45,834 nt of DNA from Desulfobacterales bacterium (GTDB lineage: Bacteria > Desulfobacterota > Desulfobacteria > Desulfobacterales > JAHEIW01), in contig JASFIG010000001.1 in the NCBI GenBank assembly GCA_050122795.1, positions 1 through 45,834 on the forward strand, written 5' to 3'. Positions 9,501-38,895 of this stretch are shown in pieces. A program made the position numbers and the translations under genes. The notes beneath the pieces were generated by a model. That model did not search any database, was not told the origin of the DNA, and saw only the letters and a list, made by a program, of their open reading frames with translations. Positions within the stretch are counted from its first letter, which is position 1. Each line of letters opens with the position of its first letter.

Positions 9501-9512
9501 TGGTCACCTTTT

Positions 9513-15128: not shown

Positions 15129-15243
15129 GATATGACTCCAATCATTTAGATAACATGACGGTTTGCGGTGGGCCCAGTATTCAGAAAGGATCTTTTGCAA
15201 AGATAATTGAAATTTAAATATCGGAGGTCAATAGAATTGTCAA

Positions 15244-15687
15244 CTATTCAAGCGTCCTGGCAATCAGGCGAACCTTGCGTTCGATATCGGAAATCTCCTT
15301 GAGCAGGCCGTCGGGCGGTGTGTCGCCTGAAAATTTGTGCTGGGTTATTCGGTATTGCAAATTCAGGTATTGCTTGTTCAGATCGATAAATGCTTTATCG
15401 CGATCCCCATGGGTGCTGTGGGCAACTGTCGTCTGAGCAGAATGTTTGGTGCCTTTCTTTTTGCGGCGAACACACAATAGACCGATAACGCCTACAGCCA
15501 GCAGAATCAATACCGTGCCCTTTGAAAAGGAAACAGACACTTTGCCATCCTGCGTTGCGATTTGACGTTGCCGGTGTGCGGGGGTCGGGCCTTGCGAGCC
15601 GGCAAGAGTCTCCTGAAATCCAGGAAGCAATGCACAGAGAATGAATATGCAGATTGAAGCGGTATGTGCGAGGTGCTTCATCTTCAT
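15244..15687 (-). CDS. Hypothetical bitopic membrane protein (signal peptide, one TM helix, cytoplasmic coiled-coil tail)
   Basis: 147 aa with an AAGAGG RBS. Hydrophobic N-terminus. TM helix VLILLAVGVIGLLCV followed by RRKKKG. It lies directly upstream of, and co-oriented with, the vWA protein. Confidence 0.55.
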   Translation of the reverse strand: MKMKHLAHTASICIFILCALLPGFQETLAGSQGPTPAHRQRQIATQDGKVSVSFSKGTVLILLAVGVIGLLCVRRKKKGTKHSAQTTVAHSTHGDRDKAFIDLNKQYLNLQYRITQHKFSGDTPPDGLLKEISDIERKVRLIARTLE

Positions 15688-18160: not shown

Positions 18161-18493
18161 TTAATGGTCACAGACGTTTGCGCCGGTCATCAGCGTGTTA
18201 TTCAGATAACTATTGACGAGTTCTTCAGGTGGTAGTGCGGGGGCTCCGGTGACAACCTTGATGCCCCTTTCATCGAAAAGGCCAACCGCCCTTTGCCCCA
18301 TTCCACCGGCGATAATAACATCGGCTCCCAATTCGTGGAGCCATCTTGGCAGGATACCGGGCTCATGAGGCGGGGGTACGAATATTTGTTTATTAGCAAT
18401 TTCATTGTCAACAACTTCGATGAGTGCAAACTCCTGGCAGTGTCCAAAATGTGCGGTTAGTTTTCCATTTGCTAATGGTATGGCAAATTTCAT
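18161..18493 (-). CDS. NifX/NifB-like (dinitrogenase FeMo-cofactor-binding fold) family protein
   Basis: 110 aa. Family pattern MKFAIP..G.L..HFGHC..F.L.EV plus GADVIIAGGMGQRAVGLFDERGIKV. AGGAGG RBS. Confidence 0.8.
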   Translation of the reverse strand: MKFAIPLANGKLTAHFGHCQEFALIEVVDNEIANKQIFVPPPHEPGILPRWLHELGADVIIAGGMGQRAVGLFDERGIKVVTGAPALPPEELVNSYLNNTLMTGANVCDH

Positions 18494-21081: not shown

Positions 21082-21097
21082 TGCATGAAATATGCCA
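21082..21097 (-). promoter_or_regulatory. sigma54 (-24/-12) promoter for the NifX/MinD cluster
   Basis: The minus strand reads TGGCATATTTCATGCA. GG and GC have the canonical 10-nt spacing. It lies ~80 nt upstream of the ATG at 21001. Confidence 0.6.
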
Positions 21098-21185
21098 CCG
21101 GGTTTGAATTCAATAAGTAATGTCGAATCGAATACTTAGTTCAATTGAAGAATAAAAGCCAATTCGCCTCATTCATCAATCTTAG

Positions 21186-21221
21186 AAAAATTGCGAAATA
21201 TTATTTGAATATTTTCGAAAT
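21186..21221 (-). promoter_or_regulatory. Candidate enhancer (UAS) for the 21082 promoter
   Basis: The minus strand reads TTTCGAAAATATTCAAATAATATTTCGCAATTTTT. The outer CG cores are ~22 bp apart. The nearest core is ~98 bp from the -24 GG. Confidence 0.45.
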
Positions 21222-21413
21222 CCATCATTCACATGATTTAATCAAAACGTCTCAAGCCAATAGCCGGCATGTCAGATGGTATATTTCAATGATGGCATGT
21301 ATAGGAGAAATGAGAGCGATTTTCCAAAGTTAGACACATTATCATATTTGAGAATCCAAAATGGACCCTTTTATACACGGGTCCAAAGTCTGTGCAGAAA
21401 CCTATTATTTCCT

Positions 21414-21429
21414 TGGTATAGCTGTTGCA
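21414..21429 (+). promoter_or_regulatory. Weaker sigma54-like promoter candidate upstream of the 87-aa ORF
   Basis: TGGTATAGCTGTTGCA has correct GG/GC spacing and a canonical TTGCA -12 box, but T replaces C at position 4. It lies 144 nt upstream of ATG 21573. Confidence 0.35.
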
Positions 21430-21572
21430 ACCACCCAAATGTGGAAGCCAGTATGATTCCGAATTAGCGAAACACGGAGTCGAGAAAATGAAAATACCGA
21501 TCCCCAAAGAGGCAATAAAAAAAATTTTAGTAGAATTAAATCAGATTATCCGGAAATATAGGAGGTAGTGAT

Positions 21573-21836
21573 ATGTATGCATTAATTTATGACGAATTCG
21601 ATCCAGCAAAGCGCGAAAAGGAAGTCATTTCTGTCCACAAGACCAGAGAGACTGCCGAAAAGGCTTTGCAGAAACGGCAGCGTAAGCTGGGCAAAAGGGT
21701 CTGGCAATGCCACACCCGGATCGTGTGGATCTACGACCCGGTTCACAAAGGAGATATCGTTACACCCGACACATTCGATACATGGGCACCCGGTGAGACA
21801 ATTCCAGAAGGAGATCGAGTACCGGATGGGGACTAA
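21573..21836 (+). CDS. Hypothetical 87-aa protein
   Basis: AGGAGG RBS 7 nt upstream. I recognised no family. Confidence 0.5.
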   Translation: MYALIYDEFDPAKREKEVISVHKTRETAEKALQKRQRKLGKRVWQCHTRIVWIYDPVHKGDIVTPDTFDTWAPGETIPEGDRVPDGD

Positions 21837-21878
21837 AAGGGATTTTAGATGGGGGTGCTATTATGGGTTTCTGTTTTT

Positions 21879-23186
21879 CTAAGCGCCATAAACGGCCACA
21901 TCTTTTAGATCATCCTGCAGATATTCGCGTTCATTTTCACCGAGGATGCCTAAGGCCAAACAGATCAGGGTCCACAGGTGAATGACACCGTAGCCACCGC
22001 CGTAGTGCTCGCTAAGCTCATGAATCTGGGCATGGCAATTGTGACAGCCTGCGATGCAATAATCCGCTTTGGTGTTCTGAATTTGAACGTCCTTTAAGCG
22101 CCCAAATTCCAGCCGCTGTTTTTTGAGGCCGGATTGCAGGAATCCGCCGCCGCCACCGCAGCAGTAATTATTGGAGCGGTTGGGGGTCATATCGATGAAA
22201 TTTTCTTCCCCGACAACGGTTTTGACCACAAAGCGTAGATCTTCGGCAATGGGATCGCCGTAGCTTTTGCGTACGATCTGGCAGGGATCCTGAACCGTAA
22301 ACTTGATTTTTAGATCCTTGTTCCAATCCGAATTGACGTTCAGTTTACCTTCACGGATCCATTGCGCATAATATTCATAGATGTTTTTAACCTCGAATTT
22401 GTGGTCGATGTTGAATTTTTTCAGTCCTGCCAGGACTGAGAAGGTCACGTGACCTCACTCGGTATTTAAAAAAATCTGACAACCAAGGTCATCGGCCTGT
22501 TTGGCGGTGGTGCGCACAATGTGTTCCCAGGCGTCATTGTCAGCCAGAAACATGCAGTAATTTTCGCCGCCCCAGCCTTTGGACCCGTAAGTCCAGTCTG
22601 CTCCCGCCAGGTGCAAAATTTTCCACAGGGGCACCATCTCATCGGGTTCTGTCACGGGCTCTCTGGAATTCTGATTTAAAAAGAAATAGGCGCCTTTTTT
22701 GTCAATCGGTGCCTGCATGTCTTTAAAATCCGGCTGGGCTTCCTGGTATTCTTCTAAGACATCTTCGACCACAAAGGTGAAATCCTCCGGAGATGCCCCC
22801 ATGGCACTGCAGCTGTCATTTCTCAGAGCCATATCGCAGGAGCCCAAAATGCCTTTGGGTCTTTCATCTCGTGGCCTGCTGCCGCGCACATTGTAAATCA
22901 GCTGGGGAATATCGATTTTCATCGGACAGACATAGATGCAGCGCTGGCACATGGTGCACATCCAGGGCCAGTCCGATTTAAGAATTTCATCGTCCAGTCC
23001 CAGAGCGGCCATCCGCAAAAATTTACGCGGATCCATACCCGCCAGACCTGTCGCCGGGCACCCGGACGAGCAGGCCCCGCAGGTCAGGCATAGATTCAGA
23101 TTGCCGCCTTCTGGCAAAAGCTGCATGACCTCGTCCATGAAACGGCTTTTCTTTTTGCTGCCCAGTTTGACAACCTCATCAGACAT
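21879..23186 (-). CDS. Selenocysteine-containing Fe-S oxidoreductase (2x[4Fe-4S] plus CCG domains; HdrD/GlpC/DsrK-like), 435 aa with Sec at TGA 22455-22457
   Basis: ORFs 22455-23186 and 21879-22448 share one frame and are joined by a single TGA (...QIFLNTE-U-GHVTFSVLAGL...). N-terminus CLTCGACSSGCP and CTMCQRCIYVCP. C-terminal CCG domain DPCQIV, NYCCGGGGG, AGCHNCHAQI. A 7-bp hairpin lies 15 nt downstream of the TGA. Confidence 0.75.
22421..22439 (-). promoter_or_regulatory. Candidate SECIS hairpin for the Fe-S oxidoreductase UGA
   Basis: The minus strand reads UCAGUCC-UGGCA-GGACUGA (perfect 7-bp stem, 5-nt loop), starting 15 nt after the UGA. Confidence 0.45.
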
Positions 23187-23352
23187 TTGTGGCCTCCTTG
23201 GTTTGCTTTTTGTCGGTTCAACGAAATTGTACGATATACTCTCATGATTGAAAATAAAGCGGTACTGAAACCGCCTTAAAAAATTTTTGTGTGTGTTACA
23301 AATTGCTGCTTTTGAGGTGAAGATGGTACAGATTTTTCATTGATTATTTTAA

Positions 23353-23368
23353 AGCATGGAGTATGCCA
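23353..23368 (-). promoter_or_regulatory. sigma54 promoter for the Sec-containing Fe-S oxidoreductase gene
   Basis: The minus strand reads TGGCATACTCCATGCT. It lies ~165 nt upstream of the ATG at 23186. Confidence 0.6.
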
Positions 23369-23447
23369 TCGTGAGATTCTTGTGAAAAGCTGTTTAAAAT
23401 TAAATGATTACACTCTGTTTTGTCTTTAATTGGATTTGAAATGTATC

Positions 23448-23483
23448 AAAATTTCGAAATTTTTTTCGCAAAATTTCGAAATT
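23448..23483 (-). promoter_or_regulatory. Tripartite palindromic enhancer (UAS) for the 23353 promoter
   Basis: The minus strand reads TTCGAAATTTTGCGAAAAAAATTTCGAAATTTT. It contains a perfect 16-bp palindrome AAAATTTCGAAATTTT (23448-23463). The cores are ~11 bp apart. The nearest core is ~89 bp from the -24 GG. Confidence 0.55.
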
Positions 23484-23570
23484 ATTTGTTATGGTAGACT
23501 GAAATTTTAGTGTCAAAGCTAACTTCGTCGGCACTGTCCAACTTTAACGGCGTCTAAAAATACAAAAGTT

Positions 23571-26255
23571 GTGAACATGACCATCCGCAAAAAAATGATC
23601 CTGATTCTGCTGGCATGTACGATCGTGCCGATGTGTTTTGTCGGTCTGCTTGGATACTATCATGCCAGGAAAAGTCTGGAATCCCTGAGGATAGAGCAGC
23701 TGAGAAGTATTGCCGACCTCAAGGCCGTGCGGATCAATGATTTTTACGTCGATCAGCAAAGACACATCAAGATGGCGCAGCAACGCCCCACTCTAAAAAA
23801 ATATGCCGCTGTTGCGGCAGAATTTGCGAATGACTTTTCCGGCCCGGCCTATGAAACCATCCAGGATGAACTGGACCAAGCACTGCGCATCTACCAGCCG
23901 CTTTATGATTTCAAAAATGTCATTCTGGCAAACCCTGAGAGTCAAATCGTTTACGTTTTGGAGCGATCTTTAAGCTGGCAAATGCTGGGTCAGGCCCTGC
24001 CGGATTTGTGGCGGGAATCATTTCAGGATGCCCCTGACCGAATCCAACTTTCAGATGTTGTGGCAAGTCAAAACCAGGCCGGCAGATTTTCGATGTTCTT
24101 CCTGGCACCGATCCAATCTGATGGCGGGCAGTTGGTCGGGGTGGCTGTGTTTGAATCCGACATGGCGCCGATTTACGATCTCATTCAAGATGCGACCGGG
24201 TTGGGAAATACCGGCGAAACTTTAATTGCCAGAAAAAATGGCGATCAAGCCCTGTTTCTTAATCCCCTTCGTCATGATCCCGATGCAGCCTTAAAAAGAA
24301 AGATTGACTTTGGAGAAAAACAAGCCATCCCTATTCAAGAGGCCCTCAAAGGCAACAATGGAAGTGGAATATCTGTGGACTACCGCGGGCAGGAAGTTAT
24401 CGCAGCCTGGCGCTATATTCCATCACTGGATTGGGGGATGGTGGCCAAGATCGATATTGCGGAGGCCTTTGAACCCGTTACCGCGCTGCGAGATTTTGTT
24501 CTCATCCTTGGCATTGCAGTCATTGTGCTCAGCATCTTTGTTGCATATATGGTTGCCAAGTCCATTTCTGATCCGATTCAAGCCCTGCAGCAAGGCGTGG
24601 TAGAAGTCGGTCGAGGCAATTTAGGCCACAAAGTCGCAACTGACGCCAAGGATGAAATCGGACAGCTGGGGCGAACATTCGACCAAATGACCGAACAGCT
24701 AAAGGCAGTGACGGCTTCAAGGGATGAATTGGATAGAGAAATAAAAAAACGCAGGAAGGTTGAGAAAGAACTCCAAAAAAGTATGAATGAGGTGGGCGAG
24801 CGGATCAAAGAGCTGAATTGCCTTTTTGAGATATCCCGTCTGGTGGAAAAACGAGAGCTGACTTTAGAGGAAATCCTCCAGGGCCTCGTTGATCTCATTC
24901 CACCGGCCTTTCAGTACCCGGAAATAACCTGTGCCGAAATTATGATAGAAAATCAAAAATTCAGCACCGGTAATTTTGAAAAAACTCAATGGATGCTTAG
25001 CCAACATATTGTAATATTTAAAAATACAGTTGGAACTTTAGCTGTTTATTATCTCGATGAAAGACCGCAAAGTGATGAAGGGCCTTTTTTAGAGGAAGAA
25101 AGAAATTTGGTCAATACGATTGCTGAACGAATTGGACGAATTATAGAGCGTAATCGAGCTCAAACAGCTTTAGTCGAAAGCGAGAAACGCTTTCGGCAAT
25201 TAGTGGAACATTCCTTAACGGGCATATCGATCATTCAAGATGGCCACATCGTTTATCAGAACCCTGAACAGGAAAGGCTACTGGGTCCCTTACCGCGGCC
25301 GATCAAATTTGCAGACACGGACTCTATCCACCCGGACGATGTTGAAAAAGTAAATCAATTTTATCAAAGCATCAGCACAGGCAAGTTGCCCATTGGCGTT
25401 ACGGATTTCAGATTTTATCCATCCGGCGGAAAAATCAGCCACAGCAATATGAAATGGGTCCACTGCCAGGCCAGCCGGATCGAATTTCAGGGAAAAGATG
25501 CGATGTTGGTCAATATGATGGATATGACCAAAACCAAAGAGCTGGAATATCTTTTGACCGTCCAGGATAAGATGGCTTCTTTGGGCCGGGTGGCAGCCGG
25601 GATCGCACATGAAATTCGCAACCCGCTTTCAGGAATCAATATCTATCTAAACACGCTTAAAAAGCTTCACCACCGGGAGGGAACGGAAGAAAAGGTTGAG
25701 CAAATATTGAATCAAATTCAATCGGCTTCTATAAAAATTGAATCCGTAATTCGCAGGGTCATGGATTTCGCCAAACCCGGCGAACCGAAGTTGGAGTTAA
25801 TTGATATTAATGAACCCATCGCAGATGCGATCAACCTCACTGCAGTGACAATGCGTAAAAGTCGCATAAAAATTGAGAAGTCATTAGCAAATGACGTGCC
25901 GCGATCGCATGCTGATAGAAATCTAATCGAAGAGATCGTTTTAAACCTGTTGAACAACGCTGTCGAAGCCATGAAAGGCATGGAAGTGAGTAAAAAGATT
26001 GACATTGCATCGTTTACAGAAGGCGGGCACATTATTATCCAGATCTCTGATTCAGGCCCGGGTGTTCCGCTAGAAATCAGGAATAAAATATTCGACCCGT
26101 ATTTTACCACGAAACACGAAGGTACCGGTATCGGTCTGAGTTTATGTCACCGAATCATCAACGATCATGGTGGAACCTTAACTGTAGCGGACAGCCATTT
26201 AGGGGGAGCGGAGTTTCGGGTCGAAATTCCGATTCAAAAAAAAGCGAACACCTAA
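23571..26255 (+). CDS. Multi-domain sensor histidine kinase (TM, periplasmic double-Cache-like domain, TM, HAMP, GAF-like, PAS, HisKA, HATPase)
   Basis: 894 aa. The start may be GTG 23571 or ATG 23577. TM helices at ~aa 9-30 and ~310-330 flank a ~280-aa periplasmic domain. HAMP (DEIGQLGRTFDQMTEQL). PAS (ESEKRFRQLVEHSLTGISIIQDG). NtrB-type H-box AAGIAHEIRNPLSGI. HATPase motifs LLNNAVEA, DSGPGV, GTGIGLSLC. Confidence 0.85.
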   Translation: MNMTIRKKMILILLACTIVPMCFVGLLGYYHARKSLESLRIEQLRSIADLKAVRINDFYVDQQRHIKMAQQRPTLKKYAAVAAEFANDFSGPAYETIQDELDQALRIYQPLYDFKNVILANPESQIVYVLERSLSWQMLGQALPDLWRESFQDAPDRIQLSDVVASQNQAGRFSMFFLAPIQSDGGQLVGVAVFESDMAPIYDLIQDATGLGNTGETLIARKNGDQALFLNPLRHDPDAALKRKIDFGEKQAIPIQEALKGNNGSGISVDYRGQEVIAAWRYIPSLDWGMVAKIDIAEAFEPVTALRDFVLILGIAVIVLSIFVAYMVAKSISDPIQALQQGVVEVGRGNLGHKVATDAKDEIGQLGRTFDQMTEQLKAVTASRDELDREIKKRRKVEKELQKSMNEVGERIKELNCLFEISRLVEKRELTLEEILQGLVDLIPPAFQYPEITCAEIMIENQKFSTGNFEKTQWMLSQHIVIFKNTVGTLAVYYLDERPQSDEGPFLEEERNLVNTIAERIGRIIERNRAQTALVESEKRFRQLVEHSLTGISIIQDGHIVYQNPEQERLLGPLPRPIKFADTDSIHPDDVEKVNQFYQSISTGKLPIGVTDFRFYPSGGKISHSNMKWVHCQASRIEFQGKDAMLVNMMDMTKTKELEYLLTVQDKMASLGRVAAGIAHEIRNPLSGINIYLNTLKKLHHREGTEEKVEQILNQIQSASIKIESVIRRVMDFAKPGEPKLELIDINEPIADAINLTAVTMRKSRIKIEKSLANDVPRSHADRNLIEEIVLNLLNNAVEAMKGMEVSKKIDIASFTEGGHIIIQISDSGPGVPLEIRNKIFDPYFTTKHEGTGIGLSLCHRIINDHGGTLTVADSHLGGAEFRVEIPIQKKANT

Positions 26256-26282
26256 CCGCTTTCCAAAAACCAGGAGTAAGTG

Positions 26283-27671
26283 ATGATTAAATTTTCTATA
26301 TATGTCATAGATGACGAGCAAACCATACGGGATGGCATCACGATGACCCTTGAGGCCGACTATCGTGTAAAATCTTTTTCTGAGGCGGAACCCGCTATCG
26401 ATTCTTTAGAAGAGGATTCCCCGGATCTGATCTTGCTGGATGTGGGGTTACCGGGGATGGATGGAATTGAGGCCCTCCGTCAAATTAAATCATCACATCC
26501 GGATATTCTGGTCATCATGATCACCGCCTATGAAGCAGTCGATACAGTAATATCGGCTATGAAACTGGGTGCCTACGACTATGTGATCAAGCCGCTTCAT
26601 ATGGACGGATTGGAGGTCACCATACGCAATGCCCTGGATTCCATACGACTTAAAAAGGAAATTCAACAGCTCCAGGAAAAGCATCTCCAAGAAAACATCC
26701 CGTGTTTTATCAGTGAAAGCAATGCCATTCAGGATGTGATGGACTTTGTCCAGATGGTGGCCAAAAGCCCGGACACCCCGGTGCTCATCATGGGTGAAAC
26801 CGGCACCGGCAAAGAACTCATTGCCAGCGCCATTCACTATTATAGCCCGAATTTTAAGGCCCCATTTGCCACCGTGAATTGCGCGGCCATCCCCAAAGAT
26901 CTGATTGAAAGTGAGCTATTTGGCTACGAAAAAGGGGCTTTCAGCGGTGCGGGCGCATCCGGCAAAAAAGGCTTAATCGAAGAATCGGCTAACGGCACCT
27001 TGTTTTTGGATGAAATTGGCGATCTTAGCCTTGAAGCCCAGGCCAAGCTGCTGCGGTTTCTCGAGCTCGGTGAGTTTTACAGAGTCGGAGGAACGAAAAA
27101 AAAGCATATTCAAACCCGTGTGATTTCTGCCACCAACAAGGAACTCAGCCAATTGATCGAGGACGGCCTATTTCGAAAAGACCTGTATTTTAGGCTCGGG
27201 GTGATTAAAGTCAAGGTGCCGTCTTTAAACGAGCGGCCAGACGATATTGGGCCCCTAGCAAAATATTTTCTTCAGGAATTCAGCCATAAGTTTGGTAAAA
27301 AATTTACCGGAATCTCCGCTGATGCCGGAAACGCTTTACTGGCTCACAACTGGACCGGTAACGTGAGAGAATTGAAAAATCTCATGGAGGCGGCGGCCCT
27401 GACGGGCAAAGGACCGGAACTCAAATTAGAGGATCTGGGATTGGAATCTGAAAATCTGTATCGTAAGTCGGCTGCAGCCAGAAATGCGGATGGGCTTTCC
27501 CCTCTGCCTGCTGAAGGTCTTGATTTATCCGAGCGGCTTCAAGCTTTTGAAAGGCACTATATCAAACAGGCCCTTAAAATTGCTAAAGGCAATGAGAGCA
27601 AGGCCGCCAAACTGTTAAATATGAATCATCATACATTTCGTTATCGCAGGAAAAAATTGTTTGCTGAATAA
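26283..27671 (+). CDS. sigma54-dependent response regulator (NtrC family: REC, AAA+, Fis-type HTH)
   Basis: REC motifs IYVIDDE and DLILLDVGLPGMDG. AAA+ motifs GETGTGKE, GAFSGA (a GAFTGA variant), LFLDEIG, RVISATN. HTH GNESKAAKLLNMNHHTFRYRRKKL. CAGGAG RBS. Confidence 0.9.
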   Translation: MIKFSIYVIDDEQTIRDGITMTLEADYRVKSFSEAEPAIDSLEEDSPDLILLDVGLPGMDGIEALRQIKSSHPDILVIMITAYEAVDTVISAMKLGAYDYVIKPLHMDGLEVTIRNALDSIRLKKEIQQLQEKHLQENIPCFISESNAIQDVMDFVQMVAKSPDTPVLIMGETGTGKELIASAIHYYSPNFKAPFATVNCAAIPKDLIESELFGYEKGAFSGAGASGKKGLIEESANGTLFLDEIGDLSLEAQAKLLRFLELGEFYRVGGTKKKHIQTRVISATNKELSQLIEDGLFRKDLYFRLGVIKVKVPSLNERPDDIGPLAKYFLQEFSHKFGKKFTGISADAGNALLAHNWTGNVRELKNLMEAAALTGKGPELKLEDLGLESENLYRKSAAARNADGLSPLPAEGLDLSERLQAFERHYIKQALKIAKGNESKAAKLLNMNHHTFRYRRKKLFAE

Positions 27672-27777
27672 CGATATCAATAATCATCATCTTTTTTGTT
27701 GTCTTATTTCCGATATCTTTGGTTTCTTTCATATACCTCTCATATCCCCAAGTCGATCTATAATTTTCCTCAATCGC

Positions 27778-27814
27778 TTTTTTTGAAATCTTAAAAAAGT
27801 CATCTTCGAAATTC
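27778..27814 (+). promoter_or_regulatory. Candidate enhancer (UAS) for the 27906 promoter
   Basis: TTTTTTTGAAATCTTAAAAAAGTCATCTTCGAAATTC. This is a degenerate version of the tripartite element. The TTCGAAATT core at 27805-27813 lies ~100 bp from the -24 GG. Confidence 0.4.
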
Positions 27815-27905
27815 TTCTAATTTGTAATCTTTTATCAATTTATCCGAAGAGACAAAAAAAAAATAAGACAATAAATTTATTACAAATTTTATCATAGCTG
27901 TTTAT

Positions 27906-27921
27906 TGGCATGTTATATGCT
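27906..27921 (+). promoter_or_regulatory. sigma54 promoter upstream of the universal stress protein gene
   Basis: TGGCATGTTATATGCT has canonical GG/GC spacing. It lies 116 nt upstream of ATG 28037. Confidence 0.55.
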
Positions 27922-28036
27922 TCTAAAAAATTAGAGCGACTCTTTTAAAGGTCTATCTAATATATGGCAAAGGAAAAGCGGAGAGAACTCTGGAAAAAAT
28001 TATATCTTAAAAAGGAAACCAGAACCGAATAACCAA

Positions 28037-28549
28037 ATGGCTTCTCACCTTCATAGAATGCTTTATGCTACGGATCTTTCCGCAGCCTCAATAGATTCAT
28101 TTCAGTACGTCCTTAATTATGCCGCCAAAAACAATTCAGCCTTGATCGTATTTCACGTAGTCAATCAAAGATCGATTACCTGTTCGAAGATACTGGCCAC
28201 TTTCTACAATGAGGGTGACGAGCACAAAATTCGACAAGAAAAAGTCAACGCTGCATTAAAGTGTATGAAAACTCTTCTGGAGCTGCAACGTCAAAAAGAG
28301 CTTCATAATCCTTTCGAGCACGTGAATACGATTGAATACCTGGTTGTTCATTATGGAAGGATCGCACAAGAAATTGTTGAAAAAGCCCATCAGTGGGGAT
28401 GCGATTTTATTATCCTGGGGCCCCGCAGAAAGCGGTTATTCGGACGGTTCCTACTTCCCAGTATATCGCGAAAAGTGATCCGTAGAACCGATAAGCCGGT
28501 GCATGTCGTAAAGAGGTCAAAAAAGAAAAGCGATGATTTGCGCCATTAA
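28037..28549 (+). CDS. Universal stress protein (UspA family)
   Basis: 170 aa. Usp-like pattern MLYATDLS...ALIVFHVV...DFIILGPRRK...VIRRTDKPVHVV. Basic C-terminal tail. Confidence 0.75.
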   Translation: MASHLHRMLYATDLSAASIDSFQYVLNYAAKNNSALIVFHVVNQRSITCSKILATFYNEGDEHKIRQEKVNAALKCMKTLLELQRQKELHNPFEHVNTIEYLVVHYGRIAQEIVEKAHQWGCDFIILGPRRKRLFGRFLLPSISRKVIRRTDKPVHVVKRSKKKSDDLRH

Positions 28550-28554
28550 AAACC

Positions 28555-28603
28555 TTCTTTTCGAAATTTTCCTACCTAAGCCTTCGCAATTTTTCAAAAT
28601 TTC
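28555..28603 (+). promoter_or_regulatory. Candidate enhancer (UAS) for the 28683 promoter
   Basis: TTCTTTTCGAAATTTTCCTACCTAAGCCTTCGCAATTTTTCAAAATTTC. The TTCGAAATTTT and TTCGCAATTTTT cores are 23 bp apart. The nearer one is ~99 bp from the -24 GG. Confidence 0.45.
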
Positions 28604-28682
28604 ATTTCCCAAGTTCTCCAATACAAACGGGTAGAAATTCTAACCATACAGAATCATGTTACTTTTTAGCACATGATCTTCA

Positions 28683-28698
28683 TGGCACATTTTATGCT
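28683..28698 (+). promoter_or_regulatory. sigma54 promoter upstream of the PFOR gene
   Basis: TGGCACATTTTATGCT, 40 nt upstream of ATG 28738. Confidence 0.6.
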
Positions 28699-28713
28699 CC
28701 TAAATAACTCTAA

Positions 28714-32280
<3,567 letters not shown>

Positions 32281-32463
32281 TATGAAAATTTGGGTGGTCC
32301 GTATTGGCGGTTGGATTCTATCCGTTGTTTATTGGTTATGCGGAATTAAATACTGGGATTTATTCGGTGGCCGCCAAAATGATGATCGGTCAAATCACAG
32401 AATCCGCAAATTAAATGATAATCGTTTAAGATAGCCATACCATTCAAAAGGAGAAGATCCTTT

Positions 32464-32709
32464 ATGGCGTTTAAATTTCAAATTGACGAAGATCGGTGTA
32501 AGGGATGCGGGCTGTGTGTAAGTGTATGCCCTAAAAAAGTTTTGGAAATTTCCGAAAATGTGAACGCTAGGGGTTACTTTCCGGTCTATCAGGCGCGACC
32601 GGAAGATTGTAATTTCTGCGCGCTGTGCTGCGTGATGTGTCCGGATGTAGCGATCGAAATTATTGAAATCGCGGAAGAGGCGCCTTCAAAAACAAAAGAA
32701 GCTGCTTGA
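32464..32709 (+). CDS. 2x[4Fe-4S] ferredoxin-type delta subunit of 2-oxoacid:ferredoxin oxidoreductase
   Basis: 81 aa. CKGCGLCVSVCP and CNFCALCCVMCP. AAGGAG RBS. Confidence 0.8.
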   Translation: MAFKFQIDEDRCKGCGLCVSVCPKKVLEISENVNARGYFPVYQARPEDCNFCALCCVMCPDVAIEIIEIAEEAPSKTKEAA

Positions 32710-32790
32710 AACCAGAAACAGGTAAAATAGAATACGTTATAATGGATCAATACAGCGAAGGGACTTTGATTTACGTTAATGGGGGATAGA

Positions 32791-33861
32791 ATGGGCAAAG
32801 TATTAATGAAGGGTAACGAAGCCATCGGTGAGGCCGCCATCCGGGCAGGCTGCTCGAACTATTTCGCTTATCCCATCACGCCACAATCAGAGGTGGCCGA
32901 ATACTTATCCCGGCGTCTGCCGGAAATCAACGGCGTGTTTTTACAAGGTGAAAGTGAAGTGGCTGTATCCTATATGATCTTTGGTGCTGCTGCCTGTGGC
33001 GAAAGGGTTTTTACCACCTCATCGAGTCCGGGCATCAGTCTAATGAGTGAAGGCATCAGTTATATCACGTCGGCCGAGTGCCCGGCGGTATTTGTCAATA
33101 TTATGCGGGGCGGACCGGGATTGGGTGGCATTCTTCCTTCCCAGGCCGATTATTTTCAGGCAACCAAAGGCGGCGGTCATGGCGACTATAAGCTGCTGGT
33201 TATGGCGCCGGCCAGTGTCCAGGAAGCTGTTGAGATGGTCATGCAAGCCTTTCCGCTGGCTGAAAAATATCGCAACCCGGTGATGATCCTGGGGGATGGT
33301 CTGATCGGCCAGATGATGGAGCCGGTGGAGTTTCCCGAGCACCTCAAGAGTGAACCGACCAACAAAGACAGCTGGGCCACCAACGGGATGGCCACCCGCA
33401 AGAGCACCAAACGCAATCTGGTTAAAACACTTTATTTAAATCCTGAGGAGCTCAATGATCATAATCTTAAATTAAAAGCCAAATATGAAAAGATGGCATG
33501 TGAGGAGATTCGTTACGAAACCTATAACGTGGAAAGAGATTATCAGGTACTTATTGTGAGTTACGGTACCATGAGCCGGGTGTGCCGAACAGCCGTTGAT
33601 AATTTGCAGGAAGAAGGGCTTGAAGTCGGGATGATCAGGCCCCAGCATCTTTTTCCTTTCCCGCAGGAGGCCATTTTACAGGCCGCCTGCAAAAAGAGCT
33701 GCGACGCCGTTTTGGGTGTTGAGATGTCGATGGGGCAAATGGTTGAGGATATCGAGCGCAGCGTTAAAGGAAAGCGCCCGGTGCGCTGGTATGGAAAATG
33801 CGGCGGTGACGTTCCGACACCTGAGGAGGTCATGGAGGAGATCCGTAAATTGGTCAAATAG
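32791..33861 (+). CDS. 2-oxoacid:ferredoxin oxidoreductase alpha subunit
   Basis: Start chosen at ATG 32791 (MGKVLMKGNEAIGEAAIRAGC...YPITPQSE), a typical Kor/Vor/PorA N-terminus. Confidence 0.85.
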   Translation: MGKVLMKGNEAIGEAAIRAGCSNYFAYPITPQSEVAEYLSRRLPEINGVFLQGESEVAVSYMIFGAAACGERVFTTSSSPGISLMSEGISYITSAECPAVFVNIMRGGPGLGGILPSQADYFQATKGGGHGDYKLLVMAPASVQEAVEMVMQAFPLAEKYRNPVMILGDGLIGQMMEPVEFPEHLKSEPTNKDSWATNGMATRKSTKRNLVKTLYLNPEELNDHNLKLKAKYEKMACEEIRYETYNVERDYQVLIVSYGTMSRVCRTAVDNLQEEGLEVGMIRPQHLFPFPQEAILQAACKKSCDAVLGVEMSMGQMVEDIERSVKGKRPVRWYGKCGGDVPTPEEVMEEIRKLVK

Positions 33862-33973
33862 TTAAATGGTCGACGGGTTGAATTAATTTAAAGTTTAACC
33901 ATCTGTCCTTTTTATATCAAACGAATTAACCAGTTGACCATTCAACCGATTGACTGAACATAGGAGAAAATAA

Positions 33974-34741
33974 ATGGGAAAAACATATCAGAAACCCAAA
34001 GCGCTCTCCCATCGGATGACCCATTACTGTCCGGGCTGCACCCATGGTGTGGCGCACCGGTTGGTCGCTGAAGTTATTGACGAGTTGAATATCCGGGACC
34101 GCACGGTGGGTATCGCCCCGGTGGGCTGCGCCGTTTTAGCCTATGAGTATTTTACGTTTGATTTTCAGGAAGCTGCCCACGGCCGGGCCCCGGCCATGGC
34201 TACCGGCATCAAACGGGTTCGACCCGATCTGATGGTGTTTACCTATCAGGGGGATGGGGATCTGGCGAGCATTGGAACTTCAGAAATTATCCATGCGGCC
34301 AACCGGGGTGAAAAGTTTACGGTCATCTTTATCAATAATGCAGTTTATGGAATGACCGGCGGACAGATGGCGCCGACGACATTGCCGCAGCAAAAAACAA
34401 CAACGTCACCTCAGGGGCGAAATGTAGACGAGGTGGGGATGCCCATGAAAATGGCTGAAGTGCTTGCTGCCCTGGAAACACCGGGATATATCGCCCGGCA
34501 ATCGCTCATCAAACCTAAATACATTGTCAAAGCAAAGAAAGCCATTAAGAAGGCCTTTACCTGCCAGGTGCAGCATCGAAGTTTTAGCTTCGTCGAATTG
34601 ATCAGCACCTGTCCGACCAACTGGGGAATGATACCGGTAGAAGCAGTCAAATGGGCCGAAGAGAACATGCATGCGTATTATCCATTGGGCGAGTACAAGA
34701 CGCCTGAGAAAGCGACTGAACCGCAAAAGCGTGCTGCTTAG
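33974..34741 (+). CDS. 2-oxoacid:ferredoxin oxidoreductase beta (TPP-binding) subunit
   Basis: 255 aa. YCPGCTHG, and GDGD...NNAVYGMTGGQ (TPP-binding motif). Confidence 0.85.
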   Translation: MGKTYQKPKALSHRMTHYCPGCTHGVAHRLVAEVIDELNIRDRTVGIAPVGCAVLAYEYFTFDFQEAAHGRAPAMATGIKRVRPDLMVFTYQGDGDLASIGTSEIIHAANRGEKFTVIFINNAVYGMTGGQMAPTTLPQQKTTTSPQGRNVDEVGMPMKMAEVLAALETPGYIARQSLIKPKYIVKAKKAIKKAFTCQVQHRSFSFVELISTCPTNWGMIPVEAVKWAEENMHAYYPLGEYKTPEKATEPQKRAA

Positions 34742-34816
34742 CGCAACTGAAAGAAGTTGTTCTTTTTACAGCCGTAATGAACGATCCGCTATCAGCTCAA
34801 ATGGGGAGGCAATCCG

Positions 34817-35347
34817 ATGCAAAGTGAAGTGAAATTTGCCGGATTTGGTGGCCAGGGCATCATGTTAATCGGCAAGATCCTTGCGCATGCAGAAATGCAG
34901 GCCGGATCCGAAGTCGTTTGGATCCCGTCATACGGTCCAGAAATGCGTGGCGGAACGGCCTATTGCACAGTGGTCTCCAGTGACCGGCCCATCGGCTCAC
35001 CGATTATTCAAAATCCACAGCATCTGGTGGCCATGAACCGCCCCTCTCTTGAAAAATTTGCACCCGCGGTGAAACCCGGGGGCGTCATATTTATCAACAG
35101 CTCATTAATCTCCATTCATTCCGGGCGCAACGATGTGGATGAATTTAGCGTCCCGATCATCGGCATTGCCAAGGATTTGGGGAATGTCAAAGTTGCCAAT
35201 ATCGTGGCGCTGGGTGCCTTTGTTGCCCGCAGTAAAATTGTCGATTTCGATTTGCTAAAGGATTCTGTCAGGGATGAATTTTCGGGTAAAAGAAAGCTGA
35301 TACCCATCAATCTGGAGGCTTTAGAGAAAGGCCGCCAGGCGGCTTAG
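34817..35347 (+). CDS. 2-oxoacid:ferredoxin oxidoreductase gamma subunit
   Basis: 176 aa. FAGFGGQGIMLIGKILA...YGPEMRGGTA, a typical gamma-subunit motif. Confidence 0.85.
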   Translation: MQSEVKFAGFGGQGIMLIGKILAHAEMQAGSEVVWIPSYGPEMRGGTAYCTVVSSDRPIGSPIIQNPQHLVAMNRPSLEKFAPAVKPGGVIFINSSLISIHSGRNDVDEFSVPIIGIAKDLGNVKVANIVALGAFVARSKIVDFDLLKDSVRDEFSGKRKLIPINLEALEKGRQAA

Positions 35348-35365
35348 AAACAAAAGAAATAAGGG

Positions 35366-35632
35366 ATGGTAAAGATGAAATTATCGGTGTGTGGTAAAGG
35401 TGGCAGCGGTAAAAATAGCGTCGTATGCCTTCTGTCGGCTGCGGCTCAAGCGAAAGGATTGAAGACGCTTGTGATCGATTCTGATGAATCCAACTCCGGG
35501 CTCTTTCGAATGCTGGGATTTAGCAAACCCCCGATTCCGCTGATGAGCCTGGTAGGAGGAAAAACAGGGATTAAAGATAAAATGAACCAGACGTCTATCC
35601 TATCTGAAAAGGATATTACGCTGGAACAATGA
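35366..35632 (+). pseudogene. Truncated CooC/MinD-like P-loop ATPase (N-terminal 88 aa only, degenerate Walker A)
   Basis: KLSVCGKGGSGKNSVVCLLSAAAQAKGLKTLVIDSDESNSG resembles the first third of CooC-type ATPases. Asn replaces the Walker A Thr/Ser. The ORF stops where the AT-rich regulatory region begins. Confidence 0.45.
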
Positions 35633-35763
35633 AACCGGTTTTTATCATTCCATTGCCCTAAGAAGAAACGGGCAACACTTATATTTCTACTGACCCCATT
35701 ATTGATTTCATGCTGATCCTGCCAGGGTTTTAAATCATCCATCAGTCGTGGAACTCCTGTTCG

Positions 35764-35796
35764 TTCGAAATTTTGCGAAAAGATTTCGAAATTTTT
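35764..35796 (+). promoter_or_regulatory. Tripartite palindromic enhancer (UAS) for the 35884 promoter
   Basis: TTCGAAATTTTGCGAAAAGATTTCGAAATTTTT. In promoter-relative orientation it is almost identical to the element at 23448-23483. The nearest core is ~98 bp from the -24 GG. Confidence 0.55.
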
Positions 35797-35883
35797 CAAA
35801 TAATTTAGCGCAACTTGGGCTATTCGAAAATTTTTATAAGGATAAGTATATGAATTTATACAACTAAGTTAGATTTCATCTAA

Positions 35884-35899
35884 TGGCATAATTCATGCA
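35884..35899 (+). promoter_or_regulatory. sigma54 promoter for the GAF-kinase / activator operon
   Basis: TGGCATAATTCATGCA. Its -12 box overlaps the first in-frame ATG (35895) of the kinase ORF. Confidence 0.5.
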
Positions 35900-37226
35900 C
35901 AATGATCAATTGCTGAGAAAAATGAATACACTACACACCCAACTGTCTACCGATTCGGAAATCAGTATCGAAACCTTTTACCGGGTTTTCCGGGACATTA
36001 GCACCCTGGTGCACACCGGCAAAAGTTTAAAAGAGGTCCTGGATCGGGTTGTCTGGAAAGCGACGGATCTGCTCACCGCCAAAGGTGCTTTGCTCAGAAT
36101 CCGCAACCTGGAAACACAGCAGTTTGCGGTTGTGGCTGCATTCGGTCTGGGTGAAAGATATCTGAATAAAGGACCCGTTACGAGCGAAAAAATTATTACA
36201 GATGAAATCCGACAAAACCGGGTTTTGATCATCGATGATATCTGGAAAGCCCCCCGGGTCGAATACCCGCAGGCGGCCTGGGATGAAGGCATCCGCATGA
36301 TTTTAGACATCCCCCTGACCGTTGCAGATCAAATCATCGGGCTTTTAAGAATCTATCTGCCCGAGACCAGAAATTTTTCAGAAGATGAACTTGATTTTAT
36401 GGTTTCCATCGGCGAGCAATGCGCCTGTGCGATCAACAAGGCCCGTCTGATCGAAAACCAGAAAGCCCGTTATGACCACCTGGCCATTCAAACCGAGAAG
36501 ATGTCGGCCCTGGGACGCATGGCAGCAGGGATTGCGCATGAAATCAATAATCCGCTGGCGGGTATTTTACTTTTCAGCTCAAATTTGAGAAAAAAAGTGC
36601 CCGCCAAGGGTGACCTGAAAGAAGGGCTGGATGTCATTGTTCGAGAGACGGTGCGCTGCAAAACCATTATCCAGGAGCTTTTGGAATTCTCTCGTGATCG
36701 GGAGCCACGCAAGGAAATGGCGAATCCGAACGCCATCCTGGAAAAGGCCTTGAAAATTTTGGAAAACGAATTTCGCCTGCATCACATTCAGATCGAAAAA
36801 CATCTTGCCGACGAAATGCCTGAAACACTGCTGGATGAAAACCAGATCGAACAGGTCTTTGTGAATCTGTTGCTGAATGCGGTGCAAGCCATTGAAGAAA
36901 AAGGCATCATCACCGTAACCAGCAGCAACGATAAAGGCCGCGAGAAGGCCCTTATCGAAATTACGGATACCGGCAACGGTATTCCTGCGGAGAATTTAGC
37001 CAAAATTTTTGAGCCTTTTTACTCCACCAAACCCAAAGGTACCGGTCTGGGGCTGGCGGTCAGCTATGCTATTATCAAAAACCACCAGGGCGACATCCAT
37101 GCTTTCAGCCAATCCGGACAGGGTGCCCGCCTCGTAATAGAGCTTCCGATTTTAGCCCAATCCGTGCAGCCGCAAAATCGCTGCCGGGACAACAATAATG
37201 CACCAAACAGCGGAGAGGCCTGTTAA
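35895..37226 (+). CDS. Cytoplasmic sensor histidine kinase (GAF, HisKA, HATPase; NtrB/AtoS-like)
   Basis: 443-aa ORF. The true start is possibly ATG 35922, if the overlapping sigma54 promoter is used. GAF-like region aa ~35-185. H-box AAGIAHEINNPLAGI. HATPase motifs LLLNAVQA, DTGNGI, GTGLGLAVS. Confidence 0.8.
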   Translation: MHNDQLLRKMNTLHTQLSTDSEISIETFYRVFRDISTLVHTGKSLKEVLDRVVWKATDLLTAKGALLRIRNLETQQFAVVAAFGLGERYLNKGPVTSEKIITDEIRQNRVLIIDDIWKAPRVEYPQAAWDEGIRMILDIPLTVADQIIGLLRIYLPETRNFSEDELDFMVSIGEQCACAINKARLIENQKARYDHLAIQTEKMSALGRMAAGIAHEINNPLAGILLFSSNLRKKVPAKGDLKEGLDVIVRETVRCKTIIQELLEFSRDREPRKEMANPNAILEKALKILENEFRLHHIQIEKHLADEMPETLLDENQIEQVFVNLLLNAVQAIEEKGIITVTSSNDKGREKALIEITDTGNGIPAENLAKIFEPFYSTKPKGTGLGLAVSYAIIKNHQGDIHAFSQSGQGARLVIELPILAQSVQPQNRCRDNNNAPNSGEAC

Positions 37227-38653
37227 TGCACGGGAGCCACATTTTGATTATTGATGATGAGCCGGTTGTTTGCGACGGATGCCGGGCCGTGCTTTCAGAA
37301 AAGTACGCGGTAGACGCCTGTTTGACCGGCAAAGAAGGTCTCGATGCGTTTTTAAAAGGACAATATGATTTGGCCCTTCTGGATATGAAACTGCCCGATA
37401 CTGACGGGATGGACATTTTGCGGATCATCCGTCAGGATAAGCCCGGTGCTTATGTGATCGTAATGACCGGCTATTCGACGGTTAAAAATGCGGTTCAGGC
37501 CATGAAATCAGGCGCTTTTGACTACCTGGCCAAGCCATTTACTGACGATGAGCTTCTGTTGGCCGTTGAAAAAGTGATCGAGCACAAACACCTCAAAGAA
37601 GAAAATCTTGCCCTGCGCAATCAGCTATATGAGCAATTTGATTTCAGCAACATTATCGGCGAAGATCGCGCACTTTTGAAAGTCTTTGACGGAATCCGCA
37701 AAGTTGCACCCACAGACAGTACCGTTCTGCTGCAGGGGGAGAGCGGAACGGGAAAAGAGCTTTTTGCGCGGGCCATTCATACCCGCAGCCCCAGAGCTGG
37801 CCGACGTTTTGTTGCCCTGGATTGCAGCTGTCTTTCTCCCAGCGTGCTGGAAAGCGAGCTGTTCGGGCATGTCAAAGGCGCCTTTACGGGCGCCATTCAG
37901 GACAAGGCCGGTATCTTTGAAGTGGCTAACGAGGGGACGCTTTTCCTGGACGAGATTTCCAACCTGACCCTTGAGGTTCAGGGCAAACTGCTGCGCGTAA
38001 TGGACACCCATGAATATAAACCGGTAGGCGCCAGCACCTTCAAAAAAACCGATGTCCGCATCATCGCGGCCACCAACCGCGATCTGAAAATCATGGTGGC
38101 TGAAAATACGTTCAGGGAAGATCTACTTTACCGCCTGAATGTTTTCCCCGTATATCTTCCGCCGCTGCGCGAGCGCAAAGACGATATTCCCAGCCTGGCG
38201 TATCATTTTCTGCGTTTTTTTTGCCGCAAGACCGGTAAGAAAATAGAAGGGTTTAGCGACGATGCCTTGCAAGTACTGGTCAATCAGCATTGGCCGGGAA
38301 ACGTGCGCCAGCTTAAAAATGTGATTGAACGCCTGGTGATTATGGCGGATCAGCGACTGCTCGACGGGCCCCAGCTTTTAGAGCATTTGCACCCCCGAAG
38401 ATCAAATGGTGGTAACAACGCCATCCCGGAAACCATCAAAGAACTCAAGGCTGTGAAGAAACACCTGCTCGACGTGCGCTATGGTGACCTGGAGAAAGCT
38501 TTCCTCGTCAAAGCACTCAAGGCCTGCGACGGCAACATCACGCGTGCGGCTGCCAGGGTGGGAATCAAAAGACCCAACTTCCACACCCTGATGAAGAAGC
38601 ATAATCTGTCCGTCAAAGATTTGAGCCGCATGTCCGACCCGGCGGGACATTAA
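37226..38653 (+). CDS. sigma54-dependent response regulator (NtrC/AtoC family)
   Basis: 475 aa. The start overlaps the kinase stop (TAATG). REC motifs ILIIDDE and DLALLDMKLPDTDG. AAA+ motifs GESGTGKE, GAFTGA, LFLDEIS, RIIAATN. HTH GNITRAAARVGIKRPNFHTLMKKH. Confidence 0.9.
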   Translation: MHGSHILIIDDEPVVCDGCRAVLSEKYAVDACLTGKEGLDAFLKGQYDLALLDMKLPDTDGMDILRIIRQDKPGAYVIVMTGYSTVKNAVQAMKSGAFDYLAKPFTDDELLLAVEKVIEHKHLKEENLALRNQLYEQFDFSNIIGEDRALLKVFDGIRKVAPTDSTVLLQGESGTGKELFARAIHTRSPRAGRRFVALDCSCLSPSVLESELFGHVKGAFTGAIQDKAGIFEVANEGTLFLDEISNLTLEVQGKLLRVMDTHEYKPVGASTFKKTDVRIIAATNRDLKIMVAENTFREDLLYRLNVFPVYLPPLRERKDDIPSLAYHFLRFFCRKTGKKIEGFSDDALQVLVNQHWPGNVRQLKNVIERLVIMADQRLLDGPQLLEHLHPRRSNGGNNAIPETIKELKAVKKHLLDVRYGDLEKAFLVKALKACDGNITRAAARVGIKRPNFHTLMKKHNLSVKDLSRMSDPAGH

Positions 38654-38693: not shown

Positions 38694-38879
38694 GATAACC
38701 AAATGAATTTTTTCGCAATAATCGCAATTGCATGGCGTTGAGGTGTATAGCGCTTCATACGATTGGCCCGATCGGCAGCAGGGTTTCACGGTGATGCCGT
38801 CGATCGCAATATATCGATATGATTTGATAAAACCAGCAGCCCGATTGTTTTTCGAAGCGACCCCGAACATGGCACACAA

Positions 38880-38895
38880 TTTGCCACACAAGGGG
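38880..38895 (+). promoter_or_regulatory. Canonical sigma54 promoter for the REC-hdrA-mvhD-fdhA operon
   Basis: TGGCACACAATTTGCC (TGGCAC-N5-TTGC), 55 nt upstream of ATG 38951. Confidence 0.6.

Follow-up and report, generated by a model that had tools for sequence, protein, structure and literature searches.

To our knowledge, almost no sigma-54 activators of the Desulfobacteria have been assigned a DNA site or a regulon. At classical NtrC-type promoters the activator occupies two dyad sites about 100-140 bp upstream, both facing the same side of the helix. The sigma-54 activator sets of Desulfobacteria are the largest known, with 50-70 members per genome (PMC12316311). The orp operons of Desulfovibrio vulgaris Hildenborough are sigma-54 dependent and need IHF together with a dedicated activator, OrpR, a one-component PAS-[4Fe-4S] protein that binds GGGCGYRTTTTGCGCCC and controls only two orp operons (PMC8359166). 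LurSR of Desulfovibrio activates the sigma-54-dependent por, whose promoter has TTGT at -12, and LurR binds GTCCGCTTTTTCAGAC (PMC6456213). DVU3305 belongs to a general-stress three-component system of D. vulgaris, is encoded in an operon with a kinase and an extra receiver protein, and controls genes of the Usp type (UspA domain) and for pyruvate-formate lyase (PMC3333781, PMC4641369). Here we describe five 16-nt sites on contig JASFIG010000001.1 of an uncultured Desulfobacterales bacterium of the sulfate-reducer type, in a stretch of 45,834 nucleotides referred to as the window. Judged from the sequence, the five are very probably sigma-54 promoters of one local regulon driven by HK1 and EBP1, a sensor histidine kinase and an NtrC-type activator encoded in the same stretch.

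The original prediction listed five 16-mers with GG and GC 10 nt apart, each pointing at the adjacent operon. A sequence check confirmed all five at the listed positions and on the listed strands, as follows, with the 10-nt separation at 5/5 sites.

21082-21097, minus strand: promoter 1, TGGCATATTTCATGCA, 81 nt before the start codon, towards the operon 21001 to 18161
23353-23368, minus strand: promoter 2, TGGCATACTCCATGCT, leader of 167 nt, towards the Fer4+CCG gene 23186 to 21879
27906-27921, plus strand: promoter 3, TGGCATGTTATATGCT, leader of 116 nt, towards the Usp gene 28037-28549
28683-28698, plus strand: promoter 4, TGGCACATTTTATGCT, 19-41 nt before the start codon, towards the PFOR gene
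35884-35899, plus strand: promoter 5, TGGCATAATTCATGCA, ~23 nt before the start codon, towards the genes for the GAF histidine kinase and EBP2 (37226-38653)

All distances run from the site to the start codon. Every site faces its downstream gene, and orientation and distance together bear out the claim that each points at the neighboring operon. TGGCAY at the -24 element and TGC(A/T) at -12 are found at 5/5 sites. The pattern TGGCAY-N5-ATGC has 6 matches in the window, compared with 0.36 +/- 0.54 expected from 100 dinucleotide-preserving shuffles, none of which reached 6. The intergenic DNA (7.5 kb, 42.5% GC) contains 4 matches that lie wholly outside genes, and 5000 shuffles of it averaged 0.017 (maximum 2). 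The pattern is thus not as common in random sequence as in the window, a check proposed with the original prediction, since the shuffles fell far below the observed counts. Sigma-70-like matches are not enriched in the region (22 against 29.7 expected). The sixth match, at 2351-2365 on the minus strand, falls within an acetyl-CoA synthetase gene, antisense to it; it has no enhancer and is probably due to chance.

Promoter 5 is not fully intergenic, as its -12 box overlaps position 35895, the first ATG of the longest open reading frame (ORF) for the GAF kinase. Contig L003 has a shorter gene call of 434 residues that starts at the following in-frame ATG, 35922. The L003 call is 9 residues shorter than those on other contigs, which fits a start at 35922. 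Because of the overlap, a transcript beginning ~12 nt past the GC must use the ATG at 35922. The kinase gene therefore probably starts at 35922; it ends at 37226, and EBP2 follows from 37226.

The regions upstream of the promoters carry a repeated TTTCGAAATTTT element that was absent from the first account of this DNA. TTCGMAAWTTT has 9 matches in the window against 0.59 expected, and 9/9 lie upstream of promoters 1, 2, 4 and 5. When the upstream regions were aligned on the promoters, two tandem dyad-like sites of ~18 bp emerged, with the distal consensus TTTCGAAATTTTGCGAAA and the proximal consensus TTTCGAAATTTTTCTAAA. Both are present at 5/5 window promoters, starting ~122 and ~100 nt before TGGC. 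Across the wider promoter set, the distances from TGGC back to the starts of the TTCGMAA cores cluster at 121-124 and 99-101 nt. Window promoter 2 is an exception in spacing, with cores 112 and 90-94 nt upstream.

21179-21222, minus strand: enhancer of promoter 1, TTTCGAAAATATTCAAAT and TTTCGCAATTTTTCTAAG, starting ~123 and 100 nt upstream of TGGC, 22.7 bits
23440-23483, minus strand: enhancer of promoter 2, TTTCGAAATTTTGCGAAA-N5-TTTCGAAATTTTGATA, 29.6 bits
27780-27823, plus strand: enhancer of promoter 3, distal site TTTTTGAAATCTTAAAAA and proximal site CTTCGAAATTCTTCTAAT, 32.3 bits
28558-28601, plus strand: enhancer of promoter 4, TTTTCGAAATTTTCCTAC...CTTCGCAATTTTTCAAAA, 38.1 bits
35763-35800, plus strand: enhancer of promoter 5, GTTCGAAATTTTGCGAAA-N2-ATTTCGAAATTTTTCAAA, site-to-site spacing of 21 nt

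The bit scores come from a 44-nt position weight matrix trained on other genomes only. On the window it gave 38, 32, 30 and 23 bits for promoters 4, 3, 2 and 1, respectively, against a maximum of 8 in a null of 20 shuffled windows. Since the matrix is gapless, it misses the promoter 5 sites with their 21-nt spacing. The enhancer of promoter 2 sits in a divergent region shared with the HK1/EBP1 operon. A spacing of 21-23 bp puts the two sites of a pair on roughly the same helix face, and two dimer sites about two helical turns apart, ~100 bp upstream, are the classical geometry of NtrC-type upstream activator sites. A full-text literature search for the enhancer sequence returned only unrelated eukaryotic papers and no microbial one. 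At promoter 5 a third half-site, TTCGAAAATTT, is located 61 nt upstream, between enhancer and promoter (35823-35833, plus strand), and it has no counterpart at promoters 1 to 4.

To examine conservation, 69 loci with EBP1 relatives were collected, mostly from metagenome-assembled genomes (MAGs) of Desulfobacterales. Proteins of the window were found identical on JGI metagenome contigs. The nearest genomes are MAGs of uncultured Desulfobacterales and Desulfobacteraceae, and EBP1 orthologues range from 88% to ~52% identity (Desulfobacula, Desulfobacter). The units of enhancer plus promoter either follow EBP1 directly, lie upstream of the kinase in divergent orientation, or are found a few kb off. 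The promoter 2 16-mer is identical in front of a 92%-identical orthologue of the Fer4+CCG gene in L010, and Usp orthologues in L005 and L008 are also preceded by such promoters. As an independent replicate, metagenomes were scanned with the enhancer 18-mer TTTCGAAATTYTTCTAAA alone, with promoter information excluded. TGGYAY-N5-NTGC was found 98-102 nt past the start of the 18-mer in 34 of the 123 matches with sufficient flank. An AT-rich 18-mer will presumably turn up by chance in unrelated DNA, which would account for the other matches. The shared enhancer at a near-fixed distance and its recurrence in dozens of related genomes and in metagenomes, along with an IHF-like site at three of the promoters, support the proposal of a compact sigma-54 regulon.

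An IHF-like site was defined as a 13-mer within 1 mismatch of the complement of WATCAANNNNTTR, with the typical form TAAC-N4-TTGATT. Such a 13-mer lies 37-47 nt upstream of TGGC in 15/33 non-redundant promoters, 14 of the 15 at -42 to -40. Shuffling the same regions gave 0.57 matches on average and at most 3. Three window promoters possess one.

21126-21138, minus strand: IHF-like site of promoter 1, TAAGTATTCGATT, 1 mismatch, starting 41 nt upstream of TGGC
23398-23410, minus strand: IHF-like site of promoter 2, TAATCATTTAATT, 1 mismatch, starting 42 nt upstream of TGGC
27869-27881, plus strand: IHF-like site of promoter 3, CAATAAATTTATT, 1 mismatch, starting 37 nt upstream of TGGC

Of these, the promoter 3 site is the weakest, being offset from the usual -42/-40.

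Two NtrC-type activators had been noticed in the interval. Both have the REC, AAA+ and HTH_8 domains of the family, and in this the observation stands, but the two are not equivalent, as the enhancer tracks EBP1.

23571-26255, plus strand: HK1, sensor histidine kinase with dCache_1, HAMP, PAS, HisKA and HATPase domains
26280-27671, plus strand: EBP1, NtrC-type activator, REC 98.7, Sigma54_activat 213.2 and HTH_8 35.9 bits
37226-38653, plus strand: EBP2, NtrC-type activator with REC, AAA+ and HTH_8 domains, a canonical GAFTGA loop and a different HTH

EBP1 and EBP2 share only 37% identity and have different recognition helices. Among EBP1 orthologues, whose identity ranges from 88% to 52%, the helix GNESKAAKLLNMNHHTFRYRRKK hardly varies. 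Most long loci keep HK1 and EBP1 as a gene pair, and HK1 is presumed to be the cognate kinase of EBP1. The enhancer accompanies this pair even in loci that have no close EBP2 orthologue (L014, L015, L017, L018 and L020). The near-invariant helix and the joint travel of enhancer and gene pair without EBP2 suggest that the TTTCGAAA-type enhancer belongs to EBP1, which is probably the protein that binds it. The EBP2 operon would then be a target of the regulon rather than its regulator, with promoter 5 read as EBP1 control of that operon. EBP1 scores below every NCBIfam equivalog cut-off (NtrC, 386 vs 559 bits; AtoC, 377 vs 714), and by these scores it belongs to none of the named equivalogs (NtrC, AtoC, ZraR, GlrR etc.). 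Its loop at residues ~210-224 reads GAFSGA, as in 46/52 EBP1 orthologues, while most other activators in the loci carry GAFTGA. GAFSGA is among the natural variants that Kazakov et al. expect to stay functional.

The -12 box was originally called atypical. The sites do have ATGC at 5/5, with A in place of T at -15, but this is a minority variant with precedent and not a new element. In the literature the sigma-54 consensus is TGGCAC-N5-TTGCW and that of Desulfovibrio is tGGcacg / tTGCt, where the lower-case t at -15 indicates a weakly conserved position. The fdhF, hycA and hyfA promoters of E. coli belong to one regulon, the FhlA formate regulon. In the part of the promoter table of PMC12316311 that was counted by hand (53 promoters), -15 is T14, C7, A4 in E. 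coli and T19, C6, A2, G1 in Desulfomicrobium. A thus occupies -15 in 6/53 promoters of this sample (~11%), and the E. coli promoters with A in it are fdhF, hycA, hyfA and zraP (PMC12316311). These curated cases make ATGC a functional form, and T at -15 a preference and not a requirement. The fdhF, hycA and hyfA promoters further establish that a functional A at -15 can be common to several members of one regulon.

Among the 33 promoters of the genome loci (26 distinct 16-mers), 27 have A at -15. All 33 read TGC at -14 to -12, positions that the search pattern fixed, as it did GG at -25/-24. The independent metagenome set has A in 29/34 and T in none. The pooled non-redundant count is A 54, C 6, T 2, G 2 (n=64). 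Spacer positions beside -15 vary freely, and more distant orthologous loci of the Desulfobacula type tend to C at -15. Canonical TTGC candidates exist in the same genomes (window 38870, L017 661, L018 3355, L134 3125), and the strict non-regulon background at -15 is T3, A1. Looser criteria admit several ATGC sites without an enhancer, e.g. L010 2031, L046 7971 and L026 13239. A background of four sites is too small for counts to separate a regulon-specific A from a partly lineage-wide bias. With A at -15, the -12 element takes a minority form that is tolerated, and this regulon retains it.

What the computation shows is that the motifs exist with this geometry, occur more often than chance predicts, are conserved and are linked to EBP1 orthologues. 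The following mechanism is proposed. Phosphorylated EBP1, in response to a signal presumably received by HK1, would bind the two ~18-bp sites (TTTCGAAATTTTGCGAAA and TTTCGAAATTTTTCTAAA) ~122 and ~100 nt upstream of TGGC and assemble into an AAA+ ring. At some promoters an IHF-type bend ~40 nt upstream of TGGC would carry the ring to the closed complex, and ATP hydrolysis would open the promoter. Dependence on sigma-54 and IHF is predicted accordingly, as are the transcription start sites. The targets in the window would be the ORP-like NifX/MinD-Fer4 cluster, the putative HdrD/HmcF-like selenoprotein, Usp, PFOR, possibly with the 2-oxoacid oxidoreductase, and the GAF-kinase/EBP2 operon. Control of the last would create a two-level cascade.

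Other explanations of the sites were weighed against this regulon. The pattern specifies few bases, and an inert-looking extra match lies inside a gene at 2351-2365, as might be seen if the 16-mers were chance matches in AT-rich intergenic DNA. This is extremely improbable, given expected counts of only 0.36 in the window and 0.017 in intergenic DNA, the presence of the same enhancer at every site, and the recurrence of the arrangement in other genomes and metagenome contigs. The 16-mers could also be operators of a dimeric protein instead of sigma-54 promoters, because TGGCAT...ATGC holds a perfect 4-bp inverted repeat, GCAT-N5-ATGC. We regard such operators as very unlikely. The arms of the dyad show no covariation between -21 and -15, for which reason the idea was rejected: 10/11 promoters with C at -21 keep A, not G, at -15. 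Orientation, the enhancer at -100/-122, the IHF-like site and the adjacent gene for a sigma-54 activator all fit sigma-54. Autoregulation is common for NtrC-type activators, promoter 5 precedes the EBP2 operon, and both activators are encoded inside the interval, so EBP2, or both activators together, might drive the five promoters. Against this, the enhancer travels with HK1-EBP1 in loci without a close EBP2 orthologue, EBP2 has a different helix, and beyond the EBP2 gene there is another promoter-like site, whose upstream repeats are not those of the enhancer. A role for EBP2 at all five promoters is therefore unlikely.

Two further proposals concern the A at -15. It may reflect a general sigma-54 preference of this Desulfobacterales lineage rather than a property of the regulon, which we consider possible though not probable. 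ATGC candidates without a recognizable enhancer (the three named above, with more in L013 and L029) speak for it; TTGC candidates in the same genomes speak against it, as does a background of T3/A1 compared with A54/T2 in the regulon, although that background sample is far too small. The A could alternatively be selected rather than neutral, private to the regulon and co-adapted to the GAFSGA loop of EBP1, the loop that meets sigma-54 region I and the fork junction at -12. Contact with sigma-54 region I, cross-linking to -12/-11 fork-junction DNA and communication with promoter DNA have all been reported for the Thr of GAFTGA, GAFSGA is found in 46/52 EBP1 orthologues compared with GAFTGA in EBP2 and most other activators of the loci, and L060 supplies one GAFTGA orthologue whose adjacent promoter is of the T type. 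If true, the activator family and its promoters would be a partly insulated channel among probably dozens of sigma-54 activators. However, the GAFSGA activators DVU3305 and DVU2827 of D. vulgaris have targets with T, C and T at -15, and the E. coli fdhF and hyc promoters, whose activator is FhlA, also carry A. Promoters linked to GAFTGA orthologues number only 2, too few for covariation, and we judge co-adaptation to be decidedly unlikely.

Several points weigh against a regulon of five sigma-54 promoters under EBP1. The assignment to EBP1 draws on co-localization and a conserved helix, and an activator with the same helix may be encoded elsewhere in the genome. EBP1 has GAFSGA in place of GAFTGA. 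The distal enhancer site of promoter 3, TTTTTGAAATCTTAAAAA, is degenerate, and the IHF-like site of this promoter is offset to -37. At promoters 4 and 5 no 13-mer comes within 1 mismatch of the IHF-like sequence. The leader of promoter 5 would be only ~12 nt, with a weak ribosome-binding site. There is no rpoN gene within the window. Solved structures were searched by sequence, and HK1 aligned to them in its kinase core and PAS region only; the search found no solved homologue for the sensor domain and hence no pointer to a ligand.

Pfam and NCBIfam confirmed the gene labels first given to the targets and regulators (NifX/MinD cluster, Fer4+CCG, Usp, PFOR, GAF kinase and two activators). The operon behind promoter 1, 21001 to 18161, encodes a NifX-like/DUF5320 protein, two MinD-Fer4 ATPases and a NifX-like (ORP-like) protein. 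The last, at 18161-18493, is a partial match to the MrpORP model (136.7 bits, C-terminal domain), below the cut-off of 450 bits. The operon shows the hallmark of ORP clusters, Nitro_FeMo-Co proteins together with MinD/Mrp-type P-loop ATPases that have Fer4 inserts.

The gene behind promoter 2, 23186 to 21879, encodes an HdrD/HmcF/TmcB-like Fer4+CCG protein and has a single in-frame TGA at 22455-22457 (...FLNTE*GHVTF...). A stable hairpin at 22439-22421 lies 18 nt downstream of the TGA (folding z-score -3.0), and the orthologues in L136 and L060 are interrupted at the equivalent position. The TGA and hairpin are consistent with a selenocysteine codon. The 167-nt leader of this gene contains a terminator-like hairpin and T-run at 23255-23278 (minus strand), conserved in L010, and a GTACCAYCTTC block ~35 nt downstream of the promoter, conserved in three loci. 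Hairpin and block may form a leader or attenuator. An Rfam scan of the whole window at gathering thresholds gave no match; the long leaders thus contain no known riboswitch or leader RNA.

The PFOR ORF likely starts at ATG 28739, after AAGGAGG, and ends at 32280; it scores 1904 bits against a cut-off of 911. The genes for the delta, alpha, beta and gamma subunits of a 2-oxoacid oxidoreductase (32464-35347) may be co-transcribed with it. Directly after the gamma subunit an ORF of 88 residues (35366-35632, plus strand) aligns to CbiA/MinD-type ATPases in their N-terminal P-loop portion alone; it may represent a truncated gene.

To examine the regulon across genomes, the gene that comes first after each enhancer-plus-promoter unit was tallied over all loci, which gave 72 non-redundant genes. 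The most frequent families are Response_reg (18), Usp (10), ferredoxin-type Fe-S domains (5-6) and Nitro_FeMo-Co (5), followed by histidine kinases (4), GNAT (4), Prismane/CODH (3), CBS (3) and Hsp20 (2). PFOR is a first gene once, in the window only. The original prediction saw a regulon linking 2-oxoacid oxidation, an Fe-S/cofactor-handling gene cluster and a selenoprotein. This describes the predicted targets in the window, but across genomes single-domain receivers and Usp are commonest. Since receivers and Usp predominate and PFOR is confined to the window, the theme seems nearer to stress or redox than to 2-oxoacid oxidation as such. The conserved core looks like a response to stress, redox or energy state, and PFOR looks like a lineage-specific recruit.

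Downstream of EBP2, a promoter-like sequence TGGCACACAATTTGCC at 38870-38885 (plus strand) has a canonical TTGC and a TGGCA...TGCCA palindrome and lies 66 nt upstream of a gene cluster. TCGCAAT repeats at ~38713-38733, ~140 nt upstream of this sequence, differ from the EBP1 enhancer. The cluster begins with a receiver protein and includes an HdrA-like protein and a selenocysteine formate dehydrogenase, with an FlpD-domain protein on the identical contig L001. It is plausible from this arrangement that the 38870 site is a target of EBP2 and so part of a cascade. The formate-dehydrogenase-like molybdopterin gene (from 44178, plus strand) has an in-frame TGA at 44586-44588 in HCARL*HSS, after which the frame continues; we take HCARL*HSS to be the selenocysteine-site motif of FdhA.

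At the other end of the window, 26-12072 encodes a sodium:solute symporter fragment, an acetyl-CoA synthetase, a PAS and RNase T exonuclease protein, a histidine kinase and a cNMP/CBS/DUF294 nucleotidyltransferase, a cluster that presumably resembles the acetate-uptake clusters of other bacteria. Two ORFs on the minus strand, 12138-15200 (1020 residues) and 15244-15687 (147 residues), have no Pfam match at E <= 1e-5.

With the enteric glnAp2/NtrC and nifH/NifA/IHF systems the window shares a -24/-12 promoter, two dyad sites and, at some promoters, an IHF-type site between them. Like classical NtrC-type activators, EBP1 combines REC, AAA+ and a Fis-type HTH and is encoded beside its kinase. It differs from them in the TTTCGAAA-type enhancer, in its targets, in falling below the equivalog cut-offs and in the GAFSGA loop. 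The resemblance to the orp system of D. vulgaris Hildenborough (PMC8359166) is in the clusters of NifX/orange-protein-like proteins and MinD/Mrp Fe-S ATPases and in the sigma-54 promoters, which are predicted here. Unlike OrpR, the window activator is a response regulator, and its regulon is much wider; the OrpR site GGGCGYRTTTTGCGCCC is absent from the window at up to 3 mismatches. As in LurSR (PMC6456213), the gene for a two-component sigma-54 activator is located directly upstream of a PFOR gene. The window differs from that system in having no lactate genes, PFOR is an uncommon target across genomes, and the LurR site GTCCGCTTTTTCAGAC is absent from the window at up to 3 mismatches.

DVU3305 is like EBP1 a response-regulator activator with GAFSGA and with targets that include Usp and pyruvate-metabolism genes, but its sites are of the GTTGCGATATGCAAC type and its target promoters have T or C at -15. 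The published DVU3305 and NmpR sites differ in sequence from the TTTCGAAA dyads, and those of OrpR and LurR bear no resemblance to them either. ATGC at -12 is shared with E. coli fdhF, hycA, hyfA and zraP (e.g. TGGCATAAAAGATGCA, TGGCACAAAAAATGCT and TGGCATCCTTTATGCA). The E. coli set is otherwise unlike the window, as organism, activator and enhancer are unrelated, and hypA, listed alongside, has TTGC.

What this locus would add is an EBP1 family, with helix NMNHHTFRYRRKK and loop GAFSGA, paired with TTTCGAAA-type dyads at -122 and -100. Its predicted target set across uncultured Desulfobacterales comprises single-domain receivers, Usp, NifX/ORP-like, Fe-S/HdrD-like, GNAT, hybrid-cluster/CODH, CBS and Hsp20 proteins, joined in the present genome by PFOR and a second activator. 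The regulon predicts co-regulation of central carbon oxidation with redox and stress functions in sulfate reducers, and its 64 promoters are a natural data set on the role of -15 in the -12 element. The pairing of activator and enhancer and the regulon itself are previously undescribed within the NtrC family, while the architecture is that of a textbook enhancer-dependent system.

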